DNA of 24,000 bases from Verrucomicrobiaceae bacterium (GTDB lineage: Bacteria; Verrucomicrobiota; Verrucomicrobiia; Chthoniobacterales; Terrimicrobiaceae): the NCBI GenBank assembly GCA_007280915.1, contig QYQL01000122.1:6647-30646 (forward strand), in the 5' to 3' direction. Shown here piece after piece: positions 7,724-10,700 of the stretch. Below the pieces are notes generated by a model, which saw only the letters and a program-made list of their open reading frames with translations, ran no database searches and was not told where the DNA came from. The position numbers and the translations under genes are program-made. Numbering within the stretch: the first letter of the stretch is position 1; the number at the start of each line of letters is the position of its first letter.

Positions 7724-10700
7724 TCAATCCGCCTTCGCGACGATGTTCACGAGCTTCCCGGGGACCACGATGACTTTGACAATGGTCTGCCCCGCCGTGG
7801 CCTCGATGACTTTCGCGCTGGCACGGGCGGTGGCTTCCAGGTCCTCCTTTGAGGCATGGATCGGGATGCGGATCTTATCGCGAAGCTTGCCGTTGACTTG
7901 AACGGGAATTTCCAGCTCGCTCTCCACCAACAGCGATTCATCGTGGACCGGCCAAGGCTGGGTTGAGGCGGAGCCATCGAAGCCGAGTCTCGACCAGAGT
8001 TCCTCGGCGAGATGCGGGGCAAACGGGCTCAGAAGCGGGAGCAGGATGCGCAGGGCTTCCTTCGGACGCGGGGTGGCGTTCACGAATTCGTTGGTGAACA
8101 CCATCATCTGGGAGATCGCGGTATTGAACGCGAGCAATCCGAGGTCGTTGGTGACCTTTTTGATCGTGGCGTGGGCGACGCGCGTCTGTGATGAGGTGAG
8201 CGGGATGTCGGCGAGGTCGCTGGAGACGATCCATTCGCCCTCCTGGTTCTCCTCCATCCCCAGCCGCCAGACGCGTGCGAGGAAGCGATAGACCCCCTCG
8301 ACGCCTTTTATGCTCCAGGGCTTCATCTGCTCGAGCGGGCCCATGAACATCTCGTAGAGGCGCAGGGAATCCGCGCCGTATTCCTCGATCACGCTGTCGG
8401 GCGTGATGACGTTGCCCCGGCTTTTCGACATTTTCTGTCCGTCCGGGCCGAGGATCATGCCTTGGTTCACCAGACGTTGGAAAGGCTCGGGCGTGGTGAG
8501 TTCGCCGAGGTCGAACAGCACCTTGTGCCAGAAGCGCGCGTAGAGGAGGTGCAAGACCGCGTGCTCGGTGCCACCGACATAGAGGTCCACCCCGCCAGGT
8601 GTCCCTGAGGAGGCCATCCAGAATTTTTCGGCATCGGTGCCGATGAAGCGGGAGGCGTTCTTCGGATCGCAGAAGCGCAGGTAATACCAGCACGATCCGG
8701 CCCACTGCGGCATTGTGTTCGTCTCGCGCACGGCCTTTTCGGAATACCGGACCCACTCACGGGCTTTGGTGAGCGGGGGCTCGGGCGTGCCTGTGGGTTT
8801 GAAATCCTCCATCTCCGGCTGCACGACCGGGAGTTCCTTTTCGCTTAGCGCGCGGTGGTTGCCGTCCTCCCAAACGATCGGAAAAGGTTCGCCCCAATAC
8901 CGCTGGCGCGAGAACAGCCAGTCGCGGAGCTTGTAGTTGATCGTGGCGCGCCCGAGCCCACGCTCCGCCAGCCAAGAGGCCATTGCGCTCTTCGCCTCGG
9001 CGGTGGGCATCCCGTCGAGAAATCCTGAATTCACCGCGATGCCCTCGCCGGAGAAGCAGGGGCTATCAGGGAGCACGGGCGTCCCGCCTGTGCAGGCGGT
9101 TACCCCGCTTAAACCTGCCTTGCGCGGATTGTTGGCGATGTATTCAACCAATTTCGAGAAATGCCGCTCATCCCGCACGATGAGGTCGAAATACTCCTCC
9201 TGCCAAACCGGCCCGCTTTGGTTCAGTGCCTTGTTGATTTCATGCGCGGTGAAGCTCTTCCAACTGTGAAGAATTTTTGCCAGATCCTGTCCCTCGTGGA
9301 GCCTAAAAAGGACATGCAGGTGGTTCGGCATCACGACGAAGGCGGAGAGATCGTAACGCTCCCCATCGAAATGCCTGAGCGCTGACTCCATAATCCCTGC
9401 GATCGAAGGATTGTTCAAAATGCAGCTTCCGGTTCCCGCATCGAGGGTTTTGTCGATCCTGTCGGAGAAAAGGAGGTGATACTCCTCCTCGTCTGCTGCG
9501 GAAAGCGGTTGTTTGCGGGATGCGAGCCAAGCCTCCGATTCGAGCTTCCAGTTTTTCAGGAGTTCGGCGGGCAGGCTGTCTGCGAGCCGCCATGTGACGA
9601 AGTAGTATTTCGCATCCTGCTGCCAGTGCGGAATGTTGCGTTCGGTGATTTTGACTTCCTCGAGCTTTTCGAAGAAGGGAGTCTTCACAGGCGGGACGCC
9701 TGTGCTCCCTGTGTTGCCCTCCCGCACCACCTCGCGGACCGGGAGTCCGAACTGTGTGGCAAATTCGTGATCCCGCTCGTCGTGCGCCGGCACGGCCATG
9801 ATCGCGCCGGTGCCGTAACCCATGAGGACATAGTCCGCGATCCACACCGGGATGGCCTCGTTGTTTACGGGATTGATGGCGAACGACCCGGTGAAGACGC
9901 CGGACTTTTCCTTTGCGAGATCGGTGCGCTCGAGGTCGGACTTCGAGGAGACCTTCTTTTGATACTCCTCCACTGCGGCGCGCTGGTCCGGGGTGGTGAT
10001 CTGCGGAACGAGCGGGTGCTCGGGCGAGAGGACCATGTAGGTCGCACCGAAAAGCGTGTCGGGTCTCGTGGTGAAGACCTCGATCGAATGCGGATTGCGG
10101 ATTGCGGATTGCGGATTGGAAGAGTCGTCCGTGGAGATCATTCCGAATTCCGAATTCCGAATTCCGAATTCGACCATGGCTCCCTCGCTGCGGCCGATCC
10201 AGTTTTTCTGGAGGAGTTTGATCGAGTCCGGCCAGTCGAGTCCTTCGAGTCCATCGATCAGGCGTTCGGCGAATGCGGTGATGCGGAGCATCCACTGGCG
10301 CATCGGGCGGCGCTCGACCGGGAAGCCCCCGACCTCGCTTTTGCCGTCCACGACCTCCTCGTTGGCGAGCACGGTGCCGAGCTGCGGGCACCAGTTCACC
10401 GGCATCTCGGCCACGTAGGCCAGGCGGACGCTGTCTGGATCGGCCCCGGTGTAGGTGCTGACCGGCTCGGCTTTTTGTGTCTCCGGATTGAACCACGCGT
10501 TGTAGAGGCGGAGGAAGATCCACTGCGTCCAGCGGAAATAATCCGGATCGGTCGTGCCGAATTCGCGCTGCCAGTCGTAGCTGAACCCGAGCGCCTGGAG
10601 CTGCGAGCGGAACTTTTCGACATTCCGCGCGGTGGTCACCCGCGGGTGCTGGCCGGTTTTGATCGCATACTGTTCGGCGGGCAGACCGAAGGCATCCCAT

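Follow-up and report, generated by a model that had tools for sequence, protein, structure and literature searches.

The closest described relatives of the locus reported here are the REPtrons, in which the gene of a tyrosine transposase associated with repetitive extragenic palindromic (REP) sequences (RAYT), such as Escherichia coli TnpA-REP (PDB 4ER8), lies between cognate GC-rich hairpins in inverted orientation, solo and doublet copies of which are dispersed (PMC8266576, PMC3733652, PMC6006769). It is known that TnpA-REP cuts and joins single-strand DNA (PMC8266576) and that REP hairpins carry a conserved 5' tetranucleotide, GTAG or CGTC (PMC8266576, PMC3733652); RAYTs have been described as housekeeping-gene-like (PMC8266576). 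The analysis of a stretch of 24,000 nucleotides of contig QYQL01000122.1 from a Verrucomicrobiaceae bacterium (hereafter, the window) disclosed a RAYT/REP unit showing the same Y1 HUH fold, HUH motif and catalytic Tyr, and likewise bracketed by inverted cognate hairpins. Unlike a REPtron, however, this unit is not free-standing: it possesses neither a start nor a stop codon of its own and is read through in the frame of leuS, the essential gene encoding the leucyl-tRNA synthetase (LeuS), so that it is part of the LeuS translation. Moreover, whereas the REPtron gene is single-copy and stably inherited, the leuS RAYT is polymorphic and exchanged between alleles, and several RAYT lineages share one insertion site.

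The data presented below lead us to favor, with moderate confidence, the idea that positions 9067-9711 of the window represent a REPtron-like mobile element sheltered in frame in leuS, where a surface loop of CP1, the editing domain, tolerates it, and leading an intein-like life without splicing. The site is dynamic across the Chthoniobacterales/Terrimicrobiaceae, where occupied, solo-hairpin and short alleles are found.

Short palindromes inserted in frame are already known, i.e., the Rickettsia palindromic elements (RPEs) and the intragenic REPs, which are located in synthetases and DNA repair genes and are abundant in the verrucomicrobium Opitutus terrae (PMC3733652 and references therein). 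The footprints found in the LeuS loop are exactly such in-frame palindromic objects; however, intragenic REPs and RPEs are short (7-80 aa) and not themselves coding, whereas the leuS unit embeds a 190-aa enzyme. A whole RAYT unit in frame is absent from the text of PMC3733652 and from its tables of intragenic REPs, and in an earlier survey long Y1 proteins were treated as fusions or annotation errors, or discarded as such (PMC6006769). No description of a whole in-frame RAYT unit in a host gene was found in the full-text literature searched, a body that leaves most subscription journals outside its coverage. Hence, what appears to be undescribed is the in-frame, host-embedded lifestyle of a known (RAYT/REPtron) kind of element; the sequence-only reading of the window had supposed as much, but the locus is no one-off, being common in the clade and having counterparts in ValS, RecG, XseA and restriction-modification (RM) enzymes.

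Inteins with homing endonucleases are likewise in-frame selfish inserts at conserved sites of essential, mostly nucleic-acid-handling proteins, with patchy empty, occupied and degenerate alleles, a history decoupled from that of the host and several lineages per site. In contrast, the leuS insert leaves the host protein interrupted, and its nuclease is a single-strand HUH enzyme, not LAGLIDADG or HNH, associated with DNA hairpin ends. Membership in the inteins was rejected, since no Hint/intein family is found among the Pfam matches and the insert, which begins with GSTGV and ends with PVLPD, has no splicing residues. The IS200/IS605 family (IS608, ISDra2), which moves by seamless cut-and-paste, has the same fold and recognizes subterminal hairpins as single-strand DNA, and its chemistry is probably shared by the leuS unit; nevertheless, the unit has true inverted repeats instead of asymmetric ends, neither tnpB nor a separate open reading frame (ORF), and no conserved target tetranucleotide. 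Its assignment to this family was discarded on the basis of the symmetric ends and of the transpos_IS200 profile (20.5 bits, cut-off 55). Lastly, IStrons, which leave the RNA by group I intron splicing and limit the damage to the interrupted gene, have the same harm-minimizing logic, although the leuS unit avoids harm only by keeping the frame and by folding as a separate domain.

The RAYT/REP Unit Embedded in leuS

The features recognized in and around the unit are reported in Table 1. The LeuS encoded in the window matches TIGR00396 leuS_bact with 965 bits (cut-off 548). The unit is not codon-aligned, as it begins at the second base of leuS codon 418, and its precise removal leaves an intact LeuS of 864 aa with a loop of about naive length; the size previously assigned to the insert and to the interrupted protein is thus borne out. 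On the other hand, the insertion had been placed after the end of the CP1 editing domain, whereas it falls at position 144/185 of the Pfam LeuRS editing-domain profile, i.e., inside the model.

Table 1. Features of the leuS gene and of the embedded RAYT/REP unit (positions in the window).
Feature	Position	Strand	Evidence or sequence
leuS ORF, host gene, 1079 aa	7724-10963	minus	ORF call and TIGR00396
RAYT/REP unit in its entirety (645 bp; frame open over all 215 codons)	9067-9711	minus	inverted repeats, ORF, cmk comparison
Gene-3' terminal inverted repeat and hairpin	9067-9095	minus	CTG-CACAGGCG-GGA-CGCCCGTG-CTCCCTG
Gene-5' terminal inverted repeat and hairpin	9683-9711	minus	CAGGGAG-CACAGGCG-TCC-CGCCTGTG-AAG
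RAYT (Y1 HUH) catalytic domain, LeuS residues 429-620	9104-9679	minus	Pfam, NCBIfam, 4ER8, AF2, dN/dS
HUH motif PNHLH (H548, H550)	9314-9328	minus	translation; invariance in carriers
Catalytic Tyr codon, Y608 in EYIANNP, C-terminal helix	9140-9142	minus	translation; invariance; 4ER8 alignment
Second in-frame repeat insert in leuS, separate from the RAYT unit	10086-10172	minus	tandem heptamers (GAATTCG)x4 ... (CAATCCG)x4

The two terminal repeats, previously described as 26 bp long, are real but slightly longer (29 nt each, 93% complementary); their 20-mer core occurs at two sites only in the 24-kb window, i.e., in the two arms, with 0 occurrences expected by chance. Each arm holds a GC-rich stem of 8 bp with a 3-nt loop, the same geometry as the Stenotrophomonas maltophilia REP (PMC8266576). 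The folding of both arms into hairpins, as formerly proposed, was only partly confirmed: the upstream hairpin (-11 kcal/mol) is clearly more stable than shuffled sequences (z = -3.1), whereas the downstream one, which contains one mismatched or wobble pair, is not clearly better than them (z = -1.0 to -1.4). At the protein level, the gene-5' and the gene-3' repeats code for the linker peptides (T)GSTGVPPVK and CTGGTPVLP(D), respectively.

That a complete RAYT with intact catalytic residues lies between these hairpins in the leuS frame was confirmed by the ORF, by sequence profiles and by the comparison with 4ER8. The insert matches Pfam Y1_Tnp (PF01797) with 42.1 bits (cut-off 23, E = 1.1e-10) and, when searched alone, NCBIfam REP_Tyr_transpos (NF047646) with 84.5 bits (cut-off 80), the score of the latter profile on the whole LeuS (79.4 bits) being just under the cut-off. 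The insert contains the YFVTWRL motif as well, and in the sequence match to 4ER8 both the HUH and the Tyr segments align, with Y608 opposite YIYINP. No internal sigma-70-like promoter was detected on the coding strand of the insert by a scan that is weak and uninformative for this phylum.

The AlphaFold2 (AF2) model of the insert alone has a predicted local confidence (pLDDT) of 90.2, and its best structural match in Foldseek is 4ER8 (E = 1.3e-7), followed by the TnpA of ISDra2, IS200 and IS608, transposases of the IS200/IS605 type filling ranks 2-30. The predicted helix 599-615 carries the region of the catalytic Tyr. The only low-confidence segments around the RAYT domain are the junction peptides (residues 417-434 and 627-634, pLDDT < 50). 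The model of full-length LeuS (pLDDT 64, predicted TM-score (pTM) 0.42) was used for local confidence and secondary structure only and, because of its low overall confidence, was kept out of any inference on domain packing. The hairpins encode peptides rich in Gly, Ser, Thr and Pro which, according to these predictions, would be disordered linkers holding a RAYT domain that folds on its own.

In most pairs, the ratio of non-synonymous to synonymous substitution rates (dN/dS) is 0.075-0.15 in the RAYT core, which denotes strong purifying selection, the LeuS parts giving values of 0.04-0.10. The M-P-N-H-x-H motif (M545, P546, N547, H548, H550), the catalytic Tyr, the next Asn and PHW are invariant in 42 carriers belonging to all insert types, while just a few degenerate copies have lost the Tyr motif (P0210, P0230 and L013).

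Distribution of the Insert among LeuS Orthologues

The 120 best clusters retrieved by a protein search with full LeuS were taken as relatives. In 49 of them (1052-1110 aa, 64-90% identical to the window protein), the PF01797 domain is present, and the extra ~210 residues are located in the same loop in all cases, after ...FGLPxREVV; all the carrier clusters named by their source are verrucomicrobial (Chthoniobacterales, Terrimicrobiaceae). The remaining 71 clusters (843-866 aa) do not contain the domain. The alignment of orthologues, proposed earlier as a check, thus disclosed presence and absence of the insert in one and the same loop. Among the species-representative genomes, 18 carriers were counted in ~75 loci, a sample skewed towards carriers because the query included the insert. 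More than 50 independent assemblies, drawn from JGI, ENA, NCBI and Logan, contain the insert, and its finding in four independent data sources excludes an assembly artefact.

A word-indexed protein search with the 216-aa insert alone retrieved nothing above 63% identity and missed all the LeuS carriers. LeuS clusters with inserts 84-99% identical sit in the same database, long proteins being evidently under-sampled by the word index; due to this bias, the "mostly free-standing" picture emerging from that search was not used for proportions. In locus L035, from a Chthoniobacter metagenome-assembled genome, the loop is masked by Ns straight after KSGSTG, the start of the type A peptide described below (~11200-11330), so that its state is unreadable. 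A different domain is located in the same loop of a Patescibacteria LeuS (L036:9995-13012, 1005 aa), i.e., a NUDIX hydrolase (Pfam 46.9 bits, with a clear Nudix box), which makes the loop a permissive, general acceptor of whole domains.

Several RAYT Lineages and Hairpin Types at the Same Site

The same LeuS site is used by no fewer than three RAYT lineages, which have different hairpins. In type A, the one found in the window, the hairpin is GGGAG-CACRGGCG-TCC-CGCCYGTG and the flanking peptides are GSTGVPPV and TGGTPVLP; in type B, the hairpin is GTGG-CATSGGCW-TCC-WGCCSATG, with GMGFQPM and HGQDAHAT; in type C, it is AGGAGC-GTGGGCG-TCC-CGCCCAC, with (S)VGVPP(T) and VGGTPTLL. Two more lineages are known from the protein only (P0173/P0177 and P0227). 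The cores of types A and B differ at 49-63% of the aligned positions, while their hosts may be as little as 0.029 substitutions/site apart. The use of one site by several lineages might be explained either by hairpin remnants that serve as landing pads or by survivorship, permissive sites being few.

The inverted arrangement of the hairpins is the same in all the parsed carriers. Across copies and types, both sides of the stem have changed in 5/8 pairs, and 0/500 shuffles reach the observed covariation score; since hairpins were chosen at no more than one mismatch, the evidence lies in the compensatory pair types and not in the percentage of paired bases. As the stems covary, the hairpin must have been kept as a nucleic-acid structure and not just as a set of linker codons. 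The distance between the two hairpins is exactly 637 nt in 17/17 parsed type A leuS elements, and 631 nt, that is two codons shorter, in the window.

Two further observations concern the hairpins. In L001 (11150-11260) and L002, the 9-mer GGGRGCACA (peptide GSTGSTGGTESTGGTG) is repeated in tandem three to four times ahead of the left hairpin, an array corresponding to the expanded outer terminal repeat plus the first half-stem, which may have been generated by slippage or by successive rounds of cleavage and rejoining. Besides, the last triplet of the inner hairpin arm, immediately before the RAYT domain, is GTG in type A (9686-9688 in the window) and ATG in type B (L011), while type C (L015) has neither; either triplet might serve as an internal start codon, as already suggested for the GTG, and there is a GGAG 5' of the type A stem.

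Footprints, Allelic Polymorphism and History of the Site

Many of the "empty" loops are not naive, in that they hold in-frame solo long hairpins with either loop sequence (one of them reads GGTGVPPVL), which are the expected products of a deletion across either of the 8-bp direct repeats common to both palindromic ends. Other loops contain remnants of type B (HGLEAHAT, MGFQPM..DAHAT or AHAT), and the naive loop, RPPQPVEG, is found in more distant relatives. In L001 and L002, a type A unit lies directly upstream of a decayed type B remnant, indicating a serial occupancy of the loop.

In a tree of the hosts from which the loop had been left out, the occupied, footprint and empty states are thoroughly interspersed, and the nearest host neighbor shares the loop state for only 13/49 carriers. 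The leuS genes of L081 and L082 show two mismatches in 2544 bp, no mismatch in the 2300 bp downstream and the same neighbor genes; apart from this, they differ only in a type B unit of 648 bp, at the limits of which a direct repeat, GGAAGCC, is found. In the pair L083/L084, the extra differences are confined to ~20 bp beside the unit, which looks like an allele replacement.

The synonymous divergence (dS) of the insert is decoupled from that of the host in both directions: it is 0.17 against 0.65 for the host in L001/L002, 0.05 against 0.23 in L004/L012, and 0.82 against 0.33 in L004/L005. The boundaries of the low-divergence tract match the ends of the element. An ancestral tandem of A and B units followed by differential loss was considered and rejected: no carrier has two full units and the dS discordance opposes strict vertical descent, although for the deep history this scheme keeps some likelihood. 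Instead of an insert universally conserved with degraded motifs, which would have denoted an old, inert expansion, the analysis disclosed a widespread and polymorphic one with intact motifs.

Copies and Hairpins outside leuS

In locus L080, the 3' end of cmk bears an in-frame fusion to a RAYT whose protein is only 63% identical, but whose left terminus (CAGGGAGCACAGGCGTCCCGCCTGTG) is identical and whose right terminus matches. When the two contexts, leuS and cmk, are compared, the limits of the mobile unit can be set at CAGGGAGCAC...GTGCTCCCTG, corresponding exactly to positions 9067-9711. No target-site duplication is present at the leuS or cmk junctions, in agreement with the seamless cut-and-paste of IS200/IS605 elements. 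The non-LeuS copies P0001-P0007 nest within the LeuS type A clade, and these sequence relationships indicate that the unit moves between genes. The search for a plasmid or phage vehicle offered no candidate, the best plasmid matches being 30-41% identical and phage matches lacking.

The exact type A hairpin was found at least 128 times in at least 119 loci of a metagenome scan. Among the matches listed, all the hairpins forming the left end of a RAYT (6/6) lie in leuS, 13 are inverted doublets similar to REPINs (REP doublets forming hairpins) and the rest are solo; at least 122 type A hairpins in the metagenome contigs are without a RAYT, some in contigs of the carriers' order. In 1.38 Mb of related flanks, four such hairpins were detected, and none outside the loop in the type A carrier loci or elsewhere in the 24-kb window.

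Embedding across the RAYT Family

An exhaustive, profile-free search with the insert retrieved 12,687 cluster representatives at E <= 1e-3. In the best 150 of these, at least 80 aa of host protein are present on both sides of the RAYT in 43 cases and on one side only in 34, numbers to be read bearing in mind that cluster representatives may be biased to long members. Besides LeuS and ValS, the hosts identified through Pfam are RecG, with the RAYT between the helicase lobes (P0288), a DinG/XPD-like helicase (P0261), the large subunit of exonuclease VII, XseA (P0259), the CCA-adding enzyme (P0327), HsdS (P0289) and ~11 MmeI/Eco57I-like enzymes of type IIG (P0254-P0387). In these non-LeuS hosts, too, the RAYT is bracketed by matching REP-derived (REP-doublet) peptides. 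Embedded copies often have their closest relatives among free copies or among the inserts of other hosts, which implies that embedding arose many times.

A search with one ValS carrier disclosed more than 100 Planctomycetota ValS clusters with a type B-like RAYT (P0341, P0365 and P0388-P0506), including that of the cultured Anaerobaca lacustris (P0442). In 83/83 anchored carriers, the RAYT is located at one site, just before ATTRPET, and flanked by runs of REP peptides (GMGVSPM..., ...HGQDAHAT); the naive 18-residue site is found in only 7/90 anchored sequences, all from close relatives.

Two side observations were made during this survey. Free copies are often labeled "type I restriction enzyme R subunit" by JGI, probably through annotation carried over from fusions. 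Furthermore, in P0332 (956 aa), a RAYT unit joins the ORF of a zinc-dependent alcohol dehydrogenase and that of a GFO/IDH/MocA oxidoreductase in one frame, and thus appears to bridge two adjacent genes.

Genomic Context of leuS

The leuS gene of the window lies at its canonical locus, adjoined by a divergent Ham1/rdgB gene, and the Ham1-leuS synteny is identical in the carrier L081, in the non-carrier L082 and in the window. This synteny and the selection acting on the host part are the only points that, from sequence, would speak against a second leuS copy, the loci covering +/-10 kb; no broken leuS was found among the unparsed genome loci checked.

Directly before VFTTRPDT, at the entry to CP1, LeuS contains another repeat insert (residues ~266-290), found in only ~10/121 LeuS orthologues. 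This heptamer insert is outside the RAYT unit, yet on the same theme of an in-frame repeat; the equivalent point in ValS is the RAYT site of that enzyme.

The gene content of the window is that of an ordinary chromosome, with genes for an M23 peptidase, a BsuPI-like protein, an acyl carrier protein, leuS, Ham1/RdgB, a P-type ATPase, CusA/CusB-like efflux proteins and an AmiA-like amidase. No tRNA genes or Rfam matches were found in the 24 kb.

Origin and Maintenance of the Embedded Unit

On the reading favored here, the embedded RAYT would be an active single-strand DNA nuclease/ligase recognizing its own hairpins. The essential host gene would supply guaranteed expression and also protection, since only frame-preserving deletions would be viable. 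The spread of the unit among leuS alleles might occur through the cutting and joining of the hairpins by the RAYT, through homologous recombination via the conserved flanks, or through both; its loss, by recombination or slippage between the repeats in the palindromic ends, would leave in-frame footprints. The outcome would be a cycle of gain, decay, loss and regain resembling that of inteins and homing endonucleases, without protein splicing. Such a selfish element, sheltered by the preservation of the frame, was one of the options already envisaged for this locus; it is favored by the polymorphism between nearly identical alleles, by the multiple lineages at one site, by the footprints and by the dS discordance.

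Several points weigh against this scheme. It is from sequence conservation that the production of the 120-kDa fusion and the activity of its RAYT are deduced. The tag GTAG/CGTC is absent 5' of the stem, its place being taken by GGAG(C) (types A and C) or GTGG(C) (type B). The junctions disclose no conserved target tetranucleotide, and there is no clean pair of naive and occupied alleles that defines the target; the difference between L081 and L082 can be read as a gain or as a loss alike. Within types, the distances of insert and host are correlated (Spearman 0.72 for A and 0.62 for B), meaning that much of the history has been vertical or has involved local exchange only. The sequence data are fairly summed up as a joint divergence of insert and host in the deeper history and frequent switches near the tips. 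Ordinary homologous recombination keeping a long-lived polymorphism could produce a similar pattern without any homing driven by the RAYT. The ValS insert, being present in most relatives, looks more like a case of stable retention than the LeuS one. Finally, the trees are neighbor-joining trees on p-distances, without statistical testing.

Some of these points are shared with a different explanation, which we consider possible but rather unlikely, namely that the unit is a domesticated RAYT in an unusual home, cognate to a dispersed REP/REPIN population and selected by the host, with leuS providing expression and the turnover reflecting incidental loss and exchange. The hairpin census fits this idea, as the RAYT-flanking type A hairpins listed are in leuS (6/6) and at least ~120 others are solo or doublet, some in the same order; so do the strong purifying selection, the deep co-divergence with the host, the near-universal retention in the ValS of Phycisphaerae and the housekeeping-like behavior of RAYTs (PMC8266576). 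Against it, the unit is dispensable, in that nearly identical strains differ in its presence and 71/120 of the closest clusters do without it; moreover, RAYT types replace one another in sister lineages, and degenerate copies have lost the Tyr motif. Nor does the explanation accord with the dS discord between insert and host, or with the lack of type A hairpins beyond the loop in the type A carrier loci and in the window.

According to a further hypothesis, the HUH domain was exapted by the synthetase, to which it would give a new activity (nucleic-acid binding or nicking, or the regulation of editing) for which it is kept. The conserved catalytic residues, the low dN/dS, the position in the editing domain and the recruitment of NUDIX to the same loop in Patescibacteria are all compatible with it. 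The same family is nonetheless found in unrelated hosts at varied positions, and at the LeuS site it shows presence/absence at the strain level and non-orthologous lineages; moreover, the terminal hairpins are retained and covary, which points to DNA recognition and not to a LeuS function, and the domain is tethered by linkers predicted to be disordered. Overall, a domesticated domain on LeuS, another of the options of the sequence-only reading, is disfavored and appears improbable.

The last alternative, an inert (recent or decaying) insertion tolerated by the loop, or an assembly or annotation artefact, finds some support in the variable length and tolerance of the loop, in the few degenerate copies and in the earlier view of long Y1 proteins (PMC6006769), but is hardly credible given the constant span of the type A leuS elements (637 nt in the 17 parsed, against 631 nt in the window), the >50 assemblies from four sources, and a dN/dS of 0.08-0.15 with HUH and Tyr residues invariant in 42 carriers, on account of which the recent neutral insertion formerly listed among the options was rejected.

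If the unit in leuS is indeed a sheltered mobile element, its relatives in ValS, RecG, XseA, the CCA-adding enzyme, the DinG-like helicase and the type IIG RM enzymes would share the same lifestyle. We give about even chances to the broader proposal that a large RAYT branch in bacteria of the Planctomycetota-Verrucomicrobiota-Chlamydiota (PVC) group (Verrucomicrobiota, Planctomycetota) and beyond constitutes a distinct class of protein-embedded mobile elements, which keep the frame open through their hairpin/linker ends, occupy permissive loops of nucleic-acid enzymes, gain expression and protection from the host, and pass through gain, decay and loss before re-invading fixed "home" sites; such elements would be the counterpart of inteins without splicing, driven by the chemistry of their HUH enzyme on single-strand DNA.

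Implications

Few repeats of bacterial genomes are as abundant and as little understood as RAYTs and REPs, whose movement and reasons for persistence are open questions. At the leuS locus, the site is fixed, can be aligned and belongs to a gene that is conserved universally, and there are occupied, footprint and empty alleles, sometimes in one population; owing to these natural allele states, gain, loss and replacement can be dated and counted, and substrates for biochemistry are at hand. Experiments are feasible, too, as a cultured ValS carrier, Anaerobaca lacustris, exists. Proteins of this kind, annotated as "leucine--tRNA ligase", "valine--tRNA ligase" or "type I restriction enzyme R subunit", have been overlooked or discarded by annotation pipelines and earlier surveys. 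The locus also indicates that essential enzymes can bear a foreign nuclease of 190 aa in their editing domain, and that transposable elements can make multi-domain proteins in one step.

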